Below are positions 1-37,864 of a stretch of DNA of 37,864 bases, piece by piece. Position numbers and translations under genes: made by a program. The stretch lies in the IMG/VR virus record IMGVR_UViG_3300045221_000018. One strand, 5' to 3'. This DNA is from a virus. Within the stretch, counting starts at the first letter, position 1, and every line of letters starts with the position of its first letter. A model generated the notes under the pieces. The model was not told the origin of the DNA and ran no database searches. It worked only from the letters and a program-made list of their open reading frames with translations.

Positions 1-127
1 AAAAGAGTAATAAACGCCAGTTGAATATCGCTAAACAAAATAGCGCTGCATTGGCTAAGGCAATTGAAAATGCAAATACAAAGTTGAATATTATCTCAAA
101 AGATGGGGTTTGGTACGAATATGGGGG
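1..127. repeat. 127-bp exact terminal duplication (identical to 37738..37864), consistent with a circular-assembly overlap
   Basis: Direct comparison: aaaagagtaataaacgccag...tacgaatatgggg occurs at both ends. An ORF reads straight through the junction. Confidence 0.95.
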
Positions 128-3006: not shown

Positions 3007-3321
3007 ATGAATCTAAAAACAATTGGAGAAATTATTTTATTTCTCTGGAATACAGGCATATTAACGGCAGTTGCATACGCAGCTAGTCGTTTTTTTATTG
3101 CCCACACAAAGAATAAGAACTTGTTGTTGCTAGAACAGTGGGCGTTGCAAGCCACTCAATACGCAGAAATGCACATACAAGGGTCAGATAAAAAGAAGCA
3201 AGTGGCTTTAAATTTTCTAGCTGATCGTTTAAATGCAAATAAATTAGGTTTGAAGTTTGATGCTAAGCAACTTGATACAGCTATTGAACTGGCAGTTAAG
3301 CAATTGAAAGGAAGCAAATAA
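3007..3321 (+). CDS. holin (LL-H-type, N-terminal TM)
   Basis: 104 aa. N-terminal TM segment IILFLWNTGILTAVAYAA and a charged C-terminus. Directly abuts the endolysin start (taATG). Confidence 0.65.
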   Translation: MNLKTIGEIILFLWNTGILTAVAYAASRFFIAHTKNKNLLLLEQWALQATQYAEMHIQGSDKKKQVALNFLADRLNANKLGLKFDAKQLDTAIELAVKQLKGSK

Positions 3322-4217
3322 TGGTTAAAAACATTAATGGCGACATCTATTCAGATTTGATTACAAGCTATGACAAGCGAGCAATGGCAGCGGGTTATTT
3401 TACACGAAAGCCAATTGATAGAATTTTAATTCATCACAATGCCACAACCAACAAAGATGTTGCGATTAACACTTGGTTGGCTACTGGTGCAGCACAAACA
3501 TCAGCCCACTATGAAATTGCCGACAATGAAATTATCGGGACGGTTGGTGAGCAAACTGCCGCATGGCATGCTGGTAACGCTGATATGAATGCACGTTCTA
3601 TCGGTATCGAACACAAGAATGCCACTGGGGGGCCAACGTGGACGATTTCAGAAGCAACATATATTAGTTCAGCTAAGTTAATTGCCGACATTGCCAAGCG
3701 CTATGGTTTCTATCCAGATAGCACACACGTTATTCCACATAAACATGTGGTTGCCACAGCTTGCCCAGGTGGCATTGATATGAACAAATTAATTACCATG
3801 GCACAAAAGGTATACAATGGCGGTAAGATAACCATTCACTCAAAAGTGGCTGTCAAACCAGATCAAAGCAAAGTAGATCAAGTACTTAACCCGGGCGAGT
3901 TCTTTAAAGCTAAGCCAGCTTATCGTGTTGACGCTATGAAAGAAGTTAATGGCATCTGGCAAGTTGTCAACTTCTCACTAGCAGGTGGCAAAGATATTGA
4001 CTGGACACTTAACGGATTAGGTGTTGAATCAGTTGATAAGGTGGATAAGGCTGGAAAGAAAACAGCCAACCAAACATTAGCAGTTGGTGACTACTTCCGT
4101 TTGCATTCAGATAGAATAAAAGTTATTGATAGTGATGATGCTACTAATGCTGTTTCGTTTAGTACCCGATATGGTGATGTATGGGTATCAGCAGATACAT
4201 TAACAGAAGTTAAATAA
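3321..4217 (+). CDS. endolysin: N-acetylmuramoyl-L-alanine amidase (Amidase_2/PGRP type) with C-terminal cell-wall-binding region
   Basis: Motifs ILIHHNAT, SAHYEI, AWHAGN, SIGIEH and PHKHV..CPG are typical of zinc amidase_2. Gene follows the holin. Confidence 0.85.
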   Translation: MVKNINGDIYSDLITSYDKRAMAAGYFTRKPIDRILIHHNATTNKDVAINTWLATGAAQTSAHYEIADNEIIGTVGEQTAAWHAGNADMNARSIGIEHKNATGGPTWTISEATYISSAKLIADIAKRYGFYPDSTHVIPHKHVVATACPGGIDMNKLITMAQKVYNGGKITIHSKVAVKPDQSKVDQVLNPGEFFKAKPAYRVDAMKEVNGIWQVVNFSLAGGKDIDWTLNGLGVESVDKVDKAGKKTANQTLAVGDYFRLHSDRIKVIDSDDATNAVSFSTRYGDVWVSADTLTEVK

Positions 4218-4224
4218 TATTCAG

Positions 4225-4253
4225 GCGCTCAACTTCGGTTGGGCGTTTTTTTA
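4225..4253 (+). terminator. rho-independent terminator after the endolysin
   Basis: Stem gcgctcaac / gttgggcg(t) with loop ttcg, followed by tttttttat. Confidence 0.8.
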
Positions 4254-4302
4254 TTGCTCTCAAACGCATTCTACAAGCATTTTTAAATGATTAGACGTAT
4301 AA

Positions 4303-4320
4303 TTGTCCACTTTTGGACAA
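4303..4320. promoter_or_regulatory. inverted repeat TTGTCCA-cttt-TGGACAA (operator-like)
   Basis: 7-bp perfect arms read directly. Shares the TTGTC/GACAA half-site with the repeat at 4371..4388. Confidence 0.4.
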
Positions 4321-4370
4321 AATAAAAAGGCTCATCTTCTACAGACGAACCTAGATTATTTTTAGTTTGA

Positions 4371-4388
4371 ATTGTCTTTATTGACAAT
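4371..4388. promoter_or_regulatory. inverted repeat ATTGTC-tttatt-GACAAT (operator-like)
   Basis: 6-bp perfect arms. Overlaps a TTGACA hexamer at 4381..4386. Confidence 0.4.
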
Positions 4389-4399
4389 CTCCCTGTGTA

Positions 4400-4428
4400 T
4401 TGACATGTCAACCATACATTGGTATGAT
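4400..4428 (+). promoter_or_regulatory. strong sigma-70-type promoter with extended -10, driving the ORF-free region
   Basis: -35 TTGACA (4400..4405, inside the perfect palindrome TTGACATGTCAA 4400..4411), 17-nt spacer, then TGg-TATGAT (-10 at 4423..4428). Confidence 0.65.
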
Positions 4429-4434
4429 AAACAC

Positions 4435-5385
4435 ATCAATTAAATATTAGAAAGTCTTGAAGTAGGAATTGGCGTTCCTAAATCAAGATGTGCCAAGAAT
4501 ATCATACTATTCGAGGTACGTGTTACTTCCTAACTGATATAACTATTGTATCAAATTAGAGGTAAAAATCAACAGGTAAGAACCAACAGGACGTAAAAGT
4601 CAGGAACTTACCAGAGGGTTATACAGCGTACTTTGAATAAGGCGCAAATGTATAACTCTTTTTTTATACAAGTATTCAACAGCAACGGTCAAAATGCACA
4701 GCCGTTATCCACATATCCTAGCAACTAGGCGGAGAACACTAACTCCGATGATTCAAAACAGTGCCCAAATGCAGTGTAATCTCCACTGGTGCGGGTTGTG
4801 GGGCGTGAAGCAGTCTTTGATACGTCCAAACCGAATGGTAAAGCCTAAACGAGTGATCGCAAGGTAAAAACAGAAGTTATTAACCGATAACAGACAGGGT
4901 GGCTAAAAGGCTGTCAGGTGCTTTCTAAGCATTTGATATGCAGAGACATGTAAGGCAGTACAATCAGTCGGAAACGGCAACACAGAGGAATGTCAGAGCT
5001 GTGGTAGTAAGGTGCTAATCAACGAGATGAGTTTGCGATAGGCGTGCTTCGTGACGAAGTGGCTAAACAAGCGGTTGTCCTAACAGAAGTAAGTTATTTA
5101 TTTTTTAACTTATTTCTCAATTTCAGGGGACAACTGTATACTCCTGACGAACTAGCGTTCAAAAGTGGCTGATTTGGTCTGGTTCTTCAAGGTTTTTTTG
5201 AACGAAAGTGAAAGAAATGCCTGCCGGCTTGAGGCTTCCAAGTGAGCTAACCTGAACAACAATCGGGGCAGTAATTAAAATGCTCTTGACTTAGCCTAAA
5301 CTTGTACAGCGAGCGTTGGTGCAGCGTTGACAAACGACTTCATGTTACACTGTTGCGATAGCCAGTAGAAACGAGGTCCTTACAC
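4435..5385 (+). ncRNA. candidate large structured non-coding RNA or structured leader (about 950 nt), family unassigned
   Basis: The track has no ORF of 60 aa or more on either strand across 4218..5385. The promoter at 4400..4428 lies upstream. Many perfect helices are present (coordinates in findings), including a GAAA tetraloop hairpin at 4967..4978. G+C is about 48-50% on two hand-counted 60-nt lines (4741.., 4801..). Confidence 0.55.
4618..4666 (+). terminator. internal terminator-like or attenuator-like hairpin with a U-run
   Basis: gttataca (4618..4625) pairs perfectly with tgtataac (4649..4656), followed by tcttttttta. The alternative pairing tgtata (4649..4654) with tataca (4665..4670) competes. 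Confidence 0.35.
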
Positions 5386-5733
5386 ATGACTAACGGCAGC
5401 ATTTGGCATGAACATTTAGCGAAATTTTTTAACTATAAAAGATTTAAAATATTTGATATTGAAGCTGAATTTGATGAGAAAGTTAATCAAGGTCTTGAGC
5501 CTAAAACAGCTTTAATGTTGGTCACACAAGATTATTTAGCGTTAAAGTTATCATCTTACAATGTGCCAGTTGTTGATTATCAGCAATTATTTAGAGAACA
5601 TTATACTGAAGCTAAGTTTGATTATGATCATGTACTAGCTTGGGCTAAGTTAGTTAATGAGTTTGGCATTGAACCAGCTAATGCACATTGGGATTCTTTA
5701 ATGCCTAATTTATTAGATGATATGTTAGAATAA
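5386..5733 (+). CDS. hypothetical protein (115 aa)
   Basis: Track ORF. GAGGT lies about 9 nt upstream of the ATG, and a strong terminator follows. Confidence 0.6.
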   Translation: MTNGSIWHEHLAKFFNYKRFKIFDIEAEFDEKVNQGLEPKTALMLVTQDYLALKLSSYNVPVVDYQQLFREHYTEAKFDYDHVLAWAKLVNEFGIEPANAHWDSLMPNLLDDMLE

Positions 5734-5753
5734 ACCCATACCACATTTTGTAA

Positions 5754-5790
5754 ACACCATAGGCTTTGTCATTTCCTATGGTGTTTTTTT
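5754..5790 (+). terminator. rho-independent terminator
   Basis: acaccatagg (5754..5763) pairs with cctatggtgt (5775..5784), followed by tttttt. Confidence 0.85.
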
Positions 5791-5910
5791 GTGTATTAAT
5801 AACAGAACCCCTGTTCAGTCATACAAACAATAAGACAACTTAGACATTTTAATTAATTAGTTGAACGTTTAGTGAACAACCATTCATTTAATGCTAGTAG
5901 TCTTTTTTGT

Positions 5911-5979: not shown

Positions 5980-6480
5980 ATGCATAAATTTGATACTAAA
6001 ACTGCTTTAGCAAAAGAACTCAATATTACACGAGGAACTTTATACGCAAGGGCTGAAAAATATGATATTAACATTAATCAGTTGAACAGTGTTGGTTTAA
6101 CTGATGAAGAGTTAGCTCAACTTTCGTCAGATGGGAATGTAGAGTTAAACAATAAATCAAACAAAGAATTTGCACGTTTGTCGGCGGAGATTGAACGTTT
6201 GAACAAGTTGAACGAGGAGCTTTCAAACGAACGTACGAATGCACAAACAGAAGCGACAGAATACAAGGAAAAGTTTGAAGCGTTAAACAAAGATTTTATT
6301 TCCTCATTAAAGGAAGCTAATGAAAAATACTATCGTCTGTTCGATCAGTCTCAGATTTTACAATTGAACGGTAAAACAAGTAAGGATGAAGATGTTACTT
6401 TAATTGATAAGGACAAAACTGAACAGACACCCGAATTAGAACCTAAAAAAGGCTTCTGGTCACGTTTATTTGGTAACTGA
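5980..6480 (+). CDS. putative DNA-binding protein: N-terminal HTH plus coiled coil
   Basis: 166 aa. TKTALAKELNITRGTLYARAEKY resembles a helix-turn-helix. The remainder is heptad-like and charged. SD GGAGG lies upstream. Confidence 0.55.
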   Translation: MHKFDTKTALAKELNITRGTLYARAEKYDININQLNSVGLTDEELAQLSSDGNVELNNKSNKEFARLSAEIERLNKLNEELSNERTNAQTEATEYKEKFEALNKDFISSLKEANEKYYRLFDQSQILQLNGKTSKDEDVTLIDKDKTEQTPELEPKKGFWSRLFGN

Positions 6481-6569
6481 TACAATTGGTCTACATTGTG
6501 AAATTTACCAAAATATGCGCTTGTGAAGAGTGAAAATGGGCTTATGATGAGTTTGTGAAGTGACCTGAT

Positions 6570-6599: not shown

Positions 6600-6679
6600 A
6601 GGTACTTTCAGTAATATGTGTTATGTAACCTTTGATTGGTATACGTAGATCACGTTAAAATTTATAGGAGTAGTTCGAT

Positions 6680-7604: not shown

Positions 7605-8477
7605 TTAGTTTTGAATCAAAGTAGCGTCTGTTAATTTGAAATAATCGTCCATTTTATCTTTTTGATATAAAGTGGCTATTCTATCTAATTTACCTGAAAT
7701 AGTAACGTCATCCATTGGATTTAGTGTAAAGAATTGATTTCCGTTGGTTTCAACTCTGAAAATTTTATGTTCCTTCTGGTTAAATTGAAAATAATCTTCT
7801 GCCTGAACAGGTTGTGTTATGTTCGTACCGGGAATATCTTTACCAGCATAGACCATCATTTTATTTCCTTGATTTTGTATGTTAAAAGCAGAACCTTTAA
7901 TGGTTACAGTTAGGTCTTCGTCTACTAGCGCACGATAATATTTGCTCTGTTCGGGAATCGTCATAGCAGTATATTCATCAATGAAATCACCTGTATTGCC
8001 GTTTTGTAATTCGTTAGAAAGTGAATTAAGTTTATTTTGATCAATAACAACATCAGAATACGTTTGATTTTTCTTTGAATCTGGAGCAGTGTTACTAATA
8101 TTTATTTTTTCAGCAGTTAGCTTAGTACCGTTATTTGTTTTTGTTGATTTAATATTTATTTTAGCGTGTGTTACATCAAGAATTTTTTTAAATTGTTTTT
8201 TTGTAACATGTAATTTAAAACGTTCATGATTAGAACCAGCAATAAAAATATAAGAATTTTTATTTTTATTGTTTGGTTTATAAATTGCAACGTTGGTTTT
8301 GTACAATCCATTTTTTAATTTGTTTTTATCAGCTTTGTTAATCAATTTATTAGCACTAATTTTAGTTATGTCTGTTCTTTTTGAATCAGCATAGGCATTA
8401 TTTGTACCACTTATTAAAAGTATCGTTGCACCCAAAACTAATAAAAATACAGCCAGTCCCTTTATTTTTTGCGCCAT
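7605..8477 (-). CDS. secreted or surface protein with signal peptide (candidate superinfection-exclusion or moron protein)
   Basis: 290 aa. N-terminus MAQKIKGLAVFLLVLGATILLISGTNNAYA-D looks like a signal peptide. The gene is co-oriented with the repressor operon. Confidence 0.6.
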   Translation of the reverse strand: MAQKIKGLAVFLLVLGATILLISGTNNAYADSKRTDITKISANKLINKADKNKLKNGLYKTNVAIYKPNNKNKNSYIFIAGSNHERFKLHVTKKQFKKILDVTHAKINIKSTKTNNGTKLTAEKINISNTAPDSKKNQTYSDVVIDQNKLNSLSNELQNGNTGDFIDEYTAMTIPEQSKYYRALVDEDLTVTIKGSAFNIQNQGNKMMVYAGKDIPGTNITQPVQAEDYFQFNQKEHKIFRVETNGNQFFTLNPMDDVTISGKLDRIATLYQKDKMDDYFKLTDATLIQN

Positions 8478-8898: not shown

Positions 8899-9258
8899 TT
8901 AATCACCAAAAATCACACGTAATAAGTTCTTATCGTGATCAGACAGTGGGCGACCGTCAGCAGATAGATAATCGTCCCAATTATCATTTTCGGCAACTTC
9001 TTTCAAATCTACTGGATTATTGCTAGTTGCTTTTTTATTAGCGTGCATATCATCAGTCTTGCCCAATAAGTAGTCGACCGATACGCCTAGTGCACCTGCT
9101 ATTGCATTAACTGCAGTATCAGTAGGTGTAACACCTTGCTTATATCTTGATATAGCACTTGGGCTTTTAAAGCCTGATTTTATCGACAATTGACGTAAGC
9201 TAAGATGTTGATTGTCTGCTTGTTCTTTGATTCGTTCGTATATTAGATTCGTTGTCAT
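8899..9258 (-). CDS. cI-like XRE-family HTH repressor
   Basis: LSLRQLSIKSGFKSPSAISRYKQG is an HTH_3-type motif. I prefer ATG 9258 (SD AGGAGA upstream) over the track start 9354, which would run through the operator sites. Confidence 0.75.
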   Translation of the reverse strand: MTTNLIYERIKEQADNQHLSLRQLSIKSGFKSPSAISRYKQGVTPTDTAVNAIAGALGVSVDYLLGKTDDMHANKKATSNNPVDLKEVAENDNWDDYLSADGRPLSDHDKNLLRVIFGD

Positions 9259-9293
9259 AATAGGTATTATCTCCTGATTGACAAACAAAGTGA

Positions 9294-9304
9294 ACACTAA
9301 GTGT
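9294..9304. promoter_or_regulatory. operator O1, ACACTaAGTGT
   Basis: One of three copies of the palindromic motif ACACT-n-AGTGT in the switch region. Confidence 0.5.
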
Positions 9305-9324
9305 ATATTTTTAGTTGCAATCAA

Positions 9325-9335
9325 ACACTGAGTGT
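9325..9335. promoter_or_regulatory. operator O2, ACACTgAGTGT
   Basis: Perfect 5+1+5 palindrome, 31 bp from O1. Confidence 0.5.
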
Positions 9336-9456
9336 TGTATACTTGGTTCATCAAGTAATTTAAGCAATAAAAAACGAGTTACATTATTAACAATCTTTGG
9401 CGAGAAACGTTAACGTAACAGTATTTTATTAGCTGTTTTAACTATGCCTTTATTGT

Positions 9457-18800: not shown

Positions 18801-19165
18801 TGACGTTTGATGAAGTGGTTGAAATTATTTGGGGCAACATATTGGGCATAGATGCATCTGATGAACCAGGTAAGAAAGATTTTATTATTAAAGACGATAT
18901 GGTTGCTACTGGTCGTGAAGGTTTGACTTTTTTAATTATGGAATTAAAAGACACTTATGCACCAACTATTGAGATGACGCATTACGAAAAGCAAGTATTT
19001 GACAGCTGGTTAAAGGAAGATGATTTTGATACACCTTTTTCTGGTTTCCTACACCATCTAGGTGAATTAGGTGGATATGAAGATAGAGGATTATTCTTAG
19101 ATTTATCAGAAAAAGATTTAATGCAAGCGTGGTTGCATCCAGAAACGATTAAAGTAGTTGACTAA
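18800..19165 (+). CDS. hypothetical protein (about 121 aa)
   Basis: Track ORF 18794..19165. ATG 18800 is coupled to the upstream stop. Confidence 0.55.
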   Translation: MTFDEVVEIIWGNILGIDASDEPGKKDFIIKDDMVATGREGLTFLIMELKDTYAPTIEMTHYEKQVFDSWLKEDDFDTPFSGFLHHLGELGGYEDRGLFLDLSEKDLMQAWLHPETIKVVD

Positions 19166-19181
19166 AAGGGAGATTAGATTA

Positions 19182-19877
19182 ATGAGTTATTTAAAGTGGT
19201 TAGGAACAGAATTAAAGAGTATTAATACAGCTGGTGGTGTGATGTTGGCATTTATTGTCGGCGTACAATTAGCATTCTACTTGTCAGCACCGATTACAGG
19301 GCTATCAACGATTACACTGGTGGCAACTTTGGTTGGTTCAGCATGTACTGTTTATATGTCACTTGGAAAGCCAATTAATGGACTGCTAGGACTAATCAGT
19401 GCGATTGGGTTCATCTACATTAATTGGACCGCAGGACACTATGCGAGTGTGTTAGATCAATTAGTATTTATTGCATTGATTGACCTGCCGTTAATCTTCA
19501 CGTGGAAAACGTGGGGACACAAAGTTGAAAATGGTGTGAAGTTCTTAACTAAAACAGGTTGGCTATTAACAATTGCTTTCATCTTAATCGCTTGGTACCC
19601 GATGATGTTGGCTTATCAAACATTAGGCGATACTAATCCACTTTGGGACAGCATCGTGTTGATTATTGGAGCAATGGCTAGTTTGTATGTATTCAAAGGT
19701 TACGGCGATAGCTACACACTTTGGTTGGCATCTGATGCCGTTAATATTCTGCTATGGGTATCAGCGCTATTTGCAGGATATTCAGCAAGTTCACTGCCAA
19801 TGCTACTAACTATGAGCTTCTACCTTGCAACAGCCTTATATGGTCGTTTCTGGAGCATTTGGCGAGGTAATAAGTAA
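19182..19877 (+). CDS. pnuC: PnuC-like nicotinamide riboside/NMN transporter
   Basis: About 231 aa and multi-TM. NPLWDS...NILLWV...YGRFWSIW resembles the conserved PnuC segments PFWDS...NWLLWV...GxxxW. ATG 19182 has an upstream SD. Confidence 0.6.
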   Translation: MSYLKWLGTELKSINTAGGVMLAFIVGVQLAFYLSAPITGLSTITLVATLVGSACTVYMSLGKPINGLLGLISAIGFIYINWTAGHYASVLDQLVFIALIDLPLIFTWKTWGHKVENGVKFLTKTGWLLTIAFILIAWYPMMLAYQTLGDTNPLWDSIVLIIGAMASLYVFKGYGDSYTLWLASDAVNILLWVSALFAGYSASSLPMLLTMSFYLATALYGRFWSIWRGNK

Positions 19878-36770: not shown

Positions 36771-37864
36771 ATGAAGCGAGACGGCACCCTTCAAGAACCG
36801 CTTCAATCAATAATCAATTCAACATTCAATGTCAGCTGGGAAAATAATAGTCAGTATCAAATAACGTTCACTGCATATGATGACAAAAGCGTGGCATACG
36901 CCTTATTAACAGCTGAAAATATCGTGACTTTTAAAGGGCAACAGTTTGTTATTAAGTCAAATGTTCCTAATTATTCAGGTGGTTATGCCACCGTTGCTAT
37001 TACAGCAACTCACATTTACATGGATAGTCGAAAAATATTTCAACACAAAAAGAAAGATGGCACATTAACTTATTCAGTTAATGATGTGCTGTCTTTTTAT
37101 TTTGCCAACAATCAGTTTGGCTATTCGTATGAAGTGAAAGGAACGTTTACTAAACAACAAATTAGTGATCTGGGTGGTAGCAATGCTTTTGATGGTTTGA
37201 GTCAGATTATATCAACTTGGCCAGATGCATTTATTTTTCCAGATAATAAGAAAATTGTTGTGTATGATAAGGCGACTTTTTCTAAGAATTTAGGCAATCG
37301 ACTAGGCTATGGTCACAACTCTGACAACATGACTTTGACTTATGATTCAACGAACTTAGTTAATCAATTAACAGTGGTTAGTGCGCAAAAAGATGACGGC
37401 AGTTCTTATTGGCAACCACACGTTGTGAAAGATGAGACGTCAATTAGTGAATATGGTGTTTGGGACGGCGGTGATTTTAGTGATGATCGTTTTACGGATG
37501 TGAATGCAGCGGATAAAGCAGCAAAAGCACAGTTGGTCACTGAACCATCAATCTCAATCACTCTTGATTATTTGGATAGTGATGTGCCGATTGCAGGCGA
37601 AATGAGACGGTTAGAAATCTTAGATACAGGCTTTGTGACTGATGTGATGGTGTTGGCTTATAGCTACTATCCATTAGATAAAAGTCAGAATCCAACTGTT
37701 ACATTGAACAGCAATTCTAAGACGATATTAGATTATCAAAAGAGTAATAAACGCCAGTTGAATATCGCTAAACAAAATAGCGCTGCATTGGCTAAGGCAA
37801 TTGAAAATGCAAATACAAAGTTGAATATTATCTCAAAAGATGGGGTTTGGTACGAATATGGGGG
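36771..37864 (+). CDS. tail-associated protein (Tal-like, N-terminal structural domain); continues at 1..146
   Basis: Open frame to the window end and through the 127-bp overlap. Position after Dit. An alternative GTG start is at 36759. Confidence 0.75.
   Translation, partial: MKRDGTLQEPLQSIINSTFNVSWENNSQYQITFTAYDDKSVAYALLTAENIVTFKGQQFVIKSNVPNYSGGYATVAITATHIYMDSRKIFQHKKKDGTLTYSVNDVLSFYFANNQFGYSYEVKGTFTKQQISDLGGSNAFDGLSQIISTWPDAFIFPDNKKIVVYDKATFSKNLGNRLGYGHNSDNMTLTYDSTNLVNQLTVVSAQKDDGSSYWQPHVVKDETSISEYGVWDGGDFSDDRFTDVNAADKAAKAQLVTEPSISITLDYLDSDVPIAGEMRRLEILDTGFVTDVMVLAYSYYPLDKSQNPTVTLNSNSKTILDYQKSNKRQLNIAKQNSAALAKAIENANTKLNIISKDGVWYEYG
37738..37864. repeat. second copy of the 127-bp terminal duplication
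   Basis: Identical to 1..127. Confidence 0.95.

Follow-up and report, generated by a model that had tools for sequence, protein, structure and literature searches.

A structured noncoding RNA common to an integrase-less Weissella phage and to plasmids without a recognised initiator is a candidate RNA replicon

Plasmid ColE1 carries a preprimer (RNA II), an antisense RNA (RNA I), and a cer site for XerCD; a hybrid processed by RNase H primes DNA polymerase I. Plasmid pAMbeta1 uses its rep transcript as the primer, and the large RNAs GOLLD and ROOL occur in phages and plasmids of lactic acid bacteria. For the non-RepA extrachromosomal prophages of cluster A mycobacteriophages, a transcribed noncoding region of ∼600 bp is necessary and sufficient for replication (Wetzel et al. 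2020, PMC7157519). Here we describe an RNA element encoded in the phage genome of IMG/VR record IMGVR_UViG_3300045221_000018 (37,864 nucleotides (nt), hereafter the window), in a stretch free of open reading frames (ORFs) at 4218–5385, and found again on Weissella plasmids. The RNA is noncoding and structured and represents a new large family that matches no Rfam model and for which we found no described counterpart in the literature. We assign a probability of about 0.6 to the reading that the region is a replication module, namely an RNA-based replicon that dispenses with an initiator protein and is controlled by an antisense RNA and attenuation. Systems of this kind are already known (ColE1 and the mycobacteriophages); the RNA family itself is new.

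The stretch directly follows the endolysin gene (3321–4217) and has no coding potential on either strand. Its longest ORF comprises 57 amino acids, all six frames hold 20–32 stops, and their translations gave no Pfam match at E ≤ 1, which bears out an earlier annotation made from the letters alone (the sequence-only reading), where the region had been called ORF-free. Temperate phages usually carry their integrase at this position, which would suit a decayed integrase, another pseudogene, or a nonfunctional spacer. However, codon periodicity is absent from 16 homologues (variable columns 113/111/103, p = 0.60), gaps among them are mostly 1–2 nt long, and every frame is interrupted somewhere. 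The central core is mostly invariant across clades, and compensatory pair changes are abundant, as described below. Together, the stops, the lacking periodicity, the invariance, and the covariation refute this alternative, which had been raised by the sequence-only reading as well and to which we leave practically no probability.

The transcription unit is limited upstream by the intrinsic terminator of the endolysin gene (plus strand, 4223–4258; hairpin 4223–4248 followed by a T run), as identified by a terminator scan. The sigma-70 sense promoter (plus strand, 4400–4428) reads TTGACA-17 nt-TATGAT with an upstream TG (TG-n-TATGAT) and agrees with the consensus at 11 of 12 positions; transcription probably starts near 4435. 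Its −35 element, spacing, and −10 element are kept in the four clades that share a homologous leader (alignments A2 and A3; scans). Upstream of the promoter, the terminator scan yielded a terminator-like hairpin on the minus strand (4328–4352) that may stop leftward or antisense transcripts and that lies outside the block common to the W. cibaria/W. confusa plasmids, which begins at 4418. The unit is closed by a further intrinsic terminator (plus strand, 5752–5791) with a perfect 12-nt inverted repeat and a T run. The endolysin terminator, the promoter at 4400–4428, and a small ORF at 5386 with its own terminator had all been read from the letters beforehand, and all were found.

Folding of the region is strand-specific, with a z-score of −4.75 for the plus strand of 4425–5385 and of −0.25 for the minus strand. 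In combination with the covariation, this supports the earlier claim of a promoter-driven noncoding unit of roughly 1 kb with a large structured RNA. The enrichment in G+C that had been claimed for the whole stretch is confined to the core (4668–5250), which at 44.1% lies in the top 0.6% of equally sized windows of the genome (37.1 ± 3.0%), whereas the leader has only 33.5%. No tRNA or tmRNA genes were found, and neither the RNA nor the adjoining sequence contains a convincing direct-repeat family that could represent iterons.

The conserved core RNA (plus strand, 4668–5250, ∼580 nt) assumes a consensus fold of 22 helices with 123 pairs, as predicted by RNAalifold from alignment A4, which comprises 16 core sequences from five clades. 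In A4, 97.0% of the cells are paired, compared with 92.0% in shuffled alignments and 32–49% when the partner is slid by 1–3 columns. Compensatory changes affect both sides of 32 pairs (13.7 ± 2.2 in shuffles, 0 of 500; 5–10 when slid), and 93 cells are changed on both sides (24 in shuffles). As A4 also supplied the structure, the contrast with the controls is somewhat inflated; the margin is nevertheless large.

The GAAA hairpin (4967–4970/4975–4978) shows covariation in all four pairs, and helix 5085–5096/5106–5117, which lies inside the long hairpin 5071–5137, in 7 of its 12 pairs. Further well-supported helices are 4730–4734/4743–4747, 4771–4776/4784–4789, 4850–4852/4857–4859, and 4945–4952/4959–4965. 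The long-range helices 4801–4806/5155–5160 and 4810–4827/4987–5002 close large domains; being nearly invariant, they cannot be tested by covariation. Indeed, little of the central core varies between clades, and the motif GGGTGGCTAAAAGGC at 4897–4911 is invariant. Several helices that had been picked out by eye are part of the consensus (4454–4489, the GAAA hairpin at 4967–4978, and 5074–5134 enclosing 5086–5116), as is 4618–4656, which corresponds to an intrinsic terminator. Two others (5156–5164/5196–5204 and 5047–5059) were not recovered, and helix 4893–4915 lies within an invariant stretch beyond the reach of covariation.

At the gathering score, no Rfam 15 family is found in the whole window or in six homologous loci, in line with the possibility raised earlier that the RNA belongs to no known family. 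With permissive filters (E ≤ 10), the region 4150–5900 gave only chance-level matches to unrelated small RNAs. A kinship to GOLLD and ROOL, as suggested before, is thus not supported. The Weissella RNA resembles them in size class, in being noncoding, and in its complex conserved fold, but neither covariance model matches even at E ≤ 10, and it differs from both by an antisense/attenuator leader and by its link to carriers without a replication gene. As far as covariance models can tell, GOLLD, ROOL, OLE, HEARO, raiA, and group I/II introns are ruled out.

The whole stretch had been taken for one giant fold. This does not apply to its first ∼230 nt, which are organized as a control leader with an antisense promoter and an attenuator-type terminator. 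The leader (plus strand, 4435–4667) evolves fast and folds with a z-score of −5.7. It starts with hairpin SL1 (4454–4489), whose apical part (4465–4478) exposes the 6-nt loop TTGGCG, followed by further hairpins near 4490–4519, 4523–4565, and 4575–4612 and by the terminator (plus strand, stem 4613–4629/4642–4662, U7 at 4659–4665), which shows compensatory changes. The 10 homologous leaders of alignment A5 share SL1, the three further hairpins, and the terminator. RNAalifold predicts 41 pairs from A5, 14 of them compensated on both sides, including pairs of SL1 and of the terminator.

The minus strand of the leader carries a convergent antisense promoter (4545–4572; TTGATT-16 nt-TG-a-TACAAT; promoter scan). 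It is kept in four clades and is often nearer to the consensus than in the window, with TTGATT-16-TATACT in homologous locus L013 and TTGATT-16-TATAAT in locus L021 at the same place and TTGCTT-18-TATAAT in locus L022, as read from alignment A3. The predicted countertranscript of ∼100 nt would extend from ∼4538 to ∼4440 and end in the complement of SL1 and a U-rich tail. Its fold z-scores are −4.5, −2.9, and −2.0 in three clades.

In the fifth clade, the homologous core is joined to a leader without sequence similarity (minus strand, L029 2000–2350 and L035 3061–3420). This leader repeats the same layout of sense promoter, antisense promoter, and terminator. Promoters and terminator are thus conserved, the unit is modular, and the core is common to all carriers. 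The genes that flank the element in L029 and L035 encode an AAA/helicase fragment and an FtsK/SpoIIIE-like protein, which suggests a different kind of mobile element.

Close relatives differ most where an antisense RNA would have to recognise its target. SL1 and/or the adjacent antisense-target segment diverge by 17–28%, whereas the central core of the same relatives diverges by 2–6% and the terminator by 0–9%. Weissella confusa N17 harbors two element-bearing plasmids, p1 and p2. In p2, the apical part of SL1 has GGAACGCCAATTCC in place of GGAATTGGCGTTCC, of which it is the exact reverse complement, and the lower stem and the 5′ end differ, too. With the sense loops TTGGCG and CGCCAA, respectively, the two plasmids could therefore not recognise each other's antisense RNA. 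Judged from these sequences, the divergence and inversion of SL1 would be the pattern expected of coexisting antisense-controlled replicons.

The inverted 14-nt SL1 hairpin is confined to one plasmid lineage (L014, which is N17 p2, L031, and L034, compared with L013). A second small inversion is found in the 3′ extension of L013 and L016 (L013 8306–8380), where a change of 4 nt from GTGC to GCAC creates a perfect 16-nt inverted repeat. Both exact inversions look like template-switch mutations in hairpins.

The arrangement of the leader recalls pT181 and the Inc18 plasmids (pIP501/pAMbeta1), which likewise have a convergent antisense promoter in the leader, a terminator just past the antisense target, and Gram-positive hosts. 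In contrast to these plasmids, however, no rep ORF follows the attenuator. The Weissella element has a structured noncoding RNA of ∼580 nt in its place, and the next ∼700 nt are noncoding in all clades. Moreover, no Rfam family of countertranscript RNAs matches, and an alternative anti-terminator structure was not found in the leader. With ColE1/pMB1 the element shares the lack of a recognised plasmid-encoded initiator (as judged by annotation and profiles only), a long structured RNA behind a constitutive promoter, a predicted antisense RNA of ∼100 nt at the 5′ end, loop specificity, and a nearby dif-like Xer site. Here the differences are that the Rfam RNAI model does not match, that the hosts are Gram-positive, and that control is apparently exerted by an intrinsic terminator (attenuation) and not by refolding of a preprimer.

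The element is found in nine Weissella plasmids (PLSDB), two IMG/VR phage contigs, 13 metagenome contigs, and one W. cibaria draft genome, at identities of 54–96%. For the Weissella hellenica plasmid CP042401.1, identity is 92% across the pieces that match, and the joined match also covers flanking genes. Eight plasmids of W. cibaria and W. confusa match with 77–78% identity over a sharply bounded block that corresponds to window 4418–5244 and beneath which nothing is annotated. Among 72,556 plasmids, blastn gave no match outside Weissella. The two IMG/VR contigs (L021 and L022), the W. cibaria draft, and the 13 genuine metagenome contigs were added by a scan with two invariant motifs; among 185,579 species genomes, this two-anchor pattern occurs in W. 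cibaria alone. One pattern match (L025, identical with L041) is due to chance, since it lies inside a 533-amino acid ORF, and L030 was rejected because it does not match the profile. The pattern GGAATGTCAGAGCTGTGGT gave zero matches in viral contigs. The copies form five clades that are 54–77% identical to each other, and every identified host is a Weissella. The sequence-only reading had proposed a phage RNA, which is correct insofar as the element occurs in phages; it is not phage-specific, as the same element resides on ordinary Weissella plasmids of 10–32 kb.

What these plasmids lack is a recognised replication initiator. None is annotated on six complete circular plasmids (10–32 kb) or in the 97% covered of a seventh, in PLSDB gene tables that omit pseudogenes. 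MOB-suite assigns a replicon type to 0 of the 9 carrier plasmids, and the main ORFs of pCYLB30-6, the smallest plasmid (10,284 bp), include no Pfam match to an initiator. When all ORFs of pCYLB30-6 were compared with six replicons by tblastn, only the RNA region and the family of ORF166, a gene further downstream, proved universal. Because ORF166 is missing beside the RNA in four contigs, the RNA is the sole universal part of the maintenance module.

The phage in turn lacks a recognisable integrase. Pfam and PHROG profile searches detected no integrase or recombinase domain among its large ORFs, although the genome encodes a cI-like repressor (8899–9354) and an ImmA-like protease. The first and last 127 nt of the window (1–127 and 37738–37864) are identical, indicating a circular assembly with a true size of 37,737 bp, and copies of the phage in other samples begin at differing points. 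The same phage is present in about 260–290 index blocks of a public assembly collection, always on contigs of ≤50 kb and never on larger ones. Repressor and ImmA without a recognisable integrase, the circular assembly, and the absence from contigs of >50 kb look like a plasmid prophage.

As the core is common to an integrase-less phage and to plasmids without a rep gene that share nothing else, a replicon is its most likely role. The phage would thus most likely keep its prophage as a plasmid, and the same module would drive the Weissella plasmids that encode no replication initiator. The RNA directly follows the lysin gene in the window, N17 p1, L021, and L022, at the usual attP/int site of temperate phages. 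Behind the RNA of L022 lie three small ORFs and a gene for a ParA ATPase (minus strand, 598–1389), pointing to a second lineage of phage-plasmids that uses classical partition. Judged from gene order, the lysin-adjacent position and the ParA gene of L022 point to a maintenance module.

In this respect, the locus parallels the non-RepA origins of the mycobacteriophages, where a transcribed noncoding region several hundred bases long likewise comes after the virion genes, beside partition functions and in phages that lack both integrase and Rep. Compare the order lysin, RNA, ORF166, and repressor module in the window and the order lysin, RNA, and ParA in L022. Unlike this resemblance in layout, the sequences have no detectable similarity: blastn (word size 11) of 4200–5450 and of the L022 copy gave no match in the phage collection. 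The Weissella unit is also longer (about 0.95–1.1 kb), has a covariation-supported multidomain fold and an antisense/attenuator leader, belongs to another host phylum, and serves as the backbone of ordinary plasmids as well. Its function is proposed here by analogy.

In the mechanism that we propose, the constitutive promoter at 4400–4428 would launch a long noncoding RNA, the first ∼230 nt of which would act as a copy-number sensor. The minus-strand promoter (4572–4545) would yield an antisense RNA of ∼100 nt that pairs with the leader, beginning at the 6-nt loop of SL1. Pairing would favor the terminator (4613–4665), so that most transcripts end there and read-through into the core is limited in proportion to the copy number, as in pT181 and Inc18. 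The transcripts that read through would contain the ∼580-nt core and the 3′ extension, and the folded RNA would start replication without a plasmid-encoded protein. The likeliest route is a persistent RNA–DNA hybrid that host enzymes would process to a primer, by analogy with ColE1, pAMbeta1, and the mycobacteriophage origins. Segregation and multimer resolution would fall to the helix-turn-helix (HTH)/coiled-coil protein encoded by ORF166 (replaced by ParA in one relative) together with a dif-like site. The antisense and attenuation mechanism, the replication function, and the priming chemistry are what we infer from these parallels, and we hold the specific priming chemistry less firmly than the replicon reading as a whole.

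Several points weigh against an RNA replicon of this kind. That the plasmids have no initiator is a statement about annotation and profiles, and an unrecognised initiator may be present among the hypothetical proteins, with ORF166 as the obvious candidate in those carriers that have it. Transcription, replication, and plasmid lysogeny of the phage are all deduced from sequence. Neither an RNA-to-DNA transition point nor a primosome site nor a G-rich tract prone to R-loop formation was found, and GC skew tracks the orientation of the genes in such small mosaic replicons. The efficient-looking terminator that closes the unit would fit a free, trans-acting RNA just as well, and a core of ∼580 nt with long-range helices and a near-invariant center is more elaborate than priming seems to need. 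A convincing, covarying anti-terminator pairing was not found either, which leaves the attenuation switch incomplete on paper. The candidates picked by eye (4537–4543/4616–4622 and 4493–4502/4675–4686) are short and only partly compensated in A5, and RNAalifold retained three pairs of the second (4491–4493/4682–4684). Finally, the four contigs in which ORF166 is missing beside the RNA (L022, L029, L035, and L037) are metagenome or viral-contig fragments that display only part of their gene content. It is conceivable, albeit somewhat unlikely, that the core goes beyond a primer precursor and is either a new giant RNA that replaces the initiator protein, perhaps by recognising or opening the origin, by recruiting host proteins, or as a trans-acting “Rep,” or an ornate RNA unrelated to replication.

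The latter possibility can be put in more specific terms: the RNA might be a large ornate RNA of mobile elements (scaffold, decoy, or anti-defence RNA) whose dosage is tuned by the antisense RNA, whereas the plasmids replicate by unrecognised means. We consider this unlikely. Its large core, which combines long-range helices with invariant loops and a GAAA tetraloop, its own promoter and terminator, and its occurrence in phages and plasmids of Lactobacillales, as is the case for ROOL and GOLLD, would all be in keeping with such an RNA. Yet, besides the failure of the GOLLD and ROOL models to match, at least seven plasmids and a temperate-type phage that lacks an integrase would, under this explanation, have no replicon or maintenance function, even though the RNA is the only item that they share. 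Antisense and attenuator control and loop changes between co-resident plasmids are, moreover, typical of replicons.

ORF166 (plus strand, 5980–6480) deserves separate consideration, because it might be a new kind of initiator with the RNA as its cis partner (regulatory leader, origin transcript, or origin activator). All nine plasmids, the window, and most metagenome contigs have a member of the ORF166 family behind the RNA, and all seven family members examined match NF038291 (NCBIfam, “plasmid replication DNA-binding protein”) weakly over their full length; the best match (E value 8.5e-5) does not reach the cutoff. Repeats of the motif (A)TTGTGAA(A/T)TT just downstream of the gene would also suit an initiator. 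However, ORF166 is absent within 1.4–3.2 kb downstream of the RNA in L022, L029, L035, and L037. The small ORFs found instead in L022 and L035 are unrelated to it by profile comparison, and the ParA system that takes its place in L022 suggests a role in segregation. In every case, a terminator stands between the RNA and ORF166. NF038291 itself is a family of accessory proteins that accompany a separate replicase and can be exchanged for KfrA (PMC12375680). ORF166 consists of an N-terminal HTH, a central coiled coil, and a C-terminal motif (family alignment A1) and not of a winged-helix initiator fold; a PDB search returned coiled-coil matches only, and a PHROG search gave nothing consistent. 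ORF166 is therefore probably an accessory DNA-binding or segregation protein and not an initiator, and we regard its being an initiator as quite improbable.

The relatives of ORF166 all end in KKGFW(A/S)RLF(G/K), KKGFW(A/S)RLFG being the form in alignment A1 (C terminus in the window at 6445–6477). This motif closely resembles the membrane-targeting amphipathic helix at the C terminus of Escherichia coli MinD. By analogy, the likeness suggests a DNA-binding protein that might tether the plasmid to the membrane. The (A)TTGTGAA(A/T)TT motifs stand 57–58 nt apart in plasmids (L013 9521–9537 and 9578–9594; L012 6155–6166 and 6213–6224) and at 6495–6512 in the window. They may be centromere or operator sites bound by the ORF166-like protein.

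A dif/cer-like Xer site (plus strand, 6604–6631) reads ACTTTCAGTAA-TATGTG-TTATGTAACCT and differs from Bacillus subtilis dif at 7 positions, compared with 9–10 for the best shuffled match. Such sites follow the type ACTnAGnATAAT-N6-ATTATGTAAnC and adjoin the ORF166-like gene in six carriers, namely the window, L012 (6268), L013 (9633), L021 (3927, minus strand), L033 (2426, minus strand), and L038 (4279, minus strand). The site could serve multimer resolution or Xer-dependent integration.

Downstream of the core, the RNA continues in a 3′ extension (plus strand, 5251–5385) in which the cross-clade alignment reveals the conserved patches CTTGTACAGCGAGCGTT (5301–5317) and TGTTGCGATAGCCA (5351–5364). 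These patches reach past the boundary of the blast match, and the plasmid units end ∼100 nt further on at a terminator. In the window, the extension is followed by ORF115 (plus strand, 5386–5733), which belongs to no Pfam or PHROG family. One could imagine the RNA as an extended, structured 5′ leader through which ORF115 is controlled at the level of translation or transcription, as the gene lies within the same promoter-to-terminator unit and has a GAGG ribosome-binding site (5373–5376). Outside this phage lineage, however, relatives of ORF115 occur only on the W. hellenica plasmid. In the plasmids of W. cibaria and W. confusa, as in the other clades, they are missing and the RNA reaches the terminator without an intervening ORF, so that the RNA is conserved independently of ORF115; we rate a leader for ORF115 as very improbable. 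Sequence directly past the terminator of the plasmid RNA units is homologous to window 5786–5830 (blast homology 5781–5830), indicating that the window and W. hellenica acquired ORF115 by insertion between RNA and terminator. By its sequence context, ORF115 would be lineage-specific cargo, like a moron that rides on the replicon transcript. An ORF115-anchored search of viral contigs for related loci returned nothing.

If the region is indeed an RNA replicon, it would be the first initiator-protein-free RNA replicon known in lactic acid bacteria and would explain how Weissella plasmids without a rep gene, to which replicon-typing tools now assign no replicon type, are maintained. To our knowledge, neither an RNA-based, initiator-protein-free replicon in these bacteria nor an attenuator-type leader ahead of a noncoding effector in such replicons has been described before, and our literature search found no described Weissella RNA replicon or phage-plasmid. 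For a temperate-type Weissella phage, the module would open a route to lysogeny without integrase and extend the idea of RNA origins to Firmicutes. Plasmids, complete phages, and a phage-like plasmid without annotated tail genes all exchange one and the same module. As a compact origin of ∼1 kb that needs no protein and whose incompatibility determinant can be swapped, it could also be useful for food-grade vectors of Weissella and perhaps of other Lactobacillaceae. Whatever its function, an RNA with 123 consensus pairs in five clades is suited to an Rfam entry and to structural study. A natural minimal replicon was sought among the short metagenome contigs, none of which has terminal overlaps.

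The phage-like plasmid is p1 of W. confusa N17 (L019, 31.6 kb). It encodes terminase, portal, capsid, holin, lysin, a repressor/ImmA pair, and phage replication genes, whereas tail genes are not annotated. L019 also contains a FokI-type restriction-modification system and an ABC-F resistance-type gene. Most plasmids of W. cibaria and W. confusa have a gene of the uracil-DNA glycosylase family just upstream of the RNA (L013 6041–6613; equivalents in L014, L016–L020, L023, L031, L033, L034, and L038). The window, W. hellenica, L012, L021, and L022 lack it. A link to single-stranded DNA exposed in R-loops is tempting, but the gene is not universal.

The window represents a complete genome of siphovirus type. 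All copies of the phage that we fetched are 100% identical across the region, and the contigs inspected are metagenomes of the Joint Genome Institute. Exact-protein look-ups gave nothing but identical copies of the same phage. Neither the element nor the first 12 kb of the window had a blastn match in 50,697 phage records, and the phage lineage is thus absent from that collection. The genes upstream of the ORF-free stretch encode tail proteins, a GDSL tail-associated protein, the holin, and the endolysin, which combines Amidase_2 and ZoocinA_TRD domains. To the right follow ORF115, ORF166, and ORF221. A leftward module contains the ImmA-like protease, the cI-like repressor, and an adjoining ORF of 290 amino acids (minus strand, 7605–8477) without Pfam or PHROG matches. 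As the sole sizeable unassigned protein of the lysogeny region, its product could conceivably be a novel recombinase. The early genes include Gp157, AAA_24, a single-strand-binding protein, a D5_N/DUF5906 primase-helicase, and RusA; terminase, portal, capsid, and tape measure genes are present as well. Amid the early and middle genes, the phage carries an auxiliary metabolic gene for a nicotinamide mononucleotide transporter (plus strand, 19158–19877; PnuC-type, PF04973).

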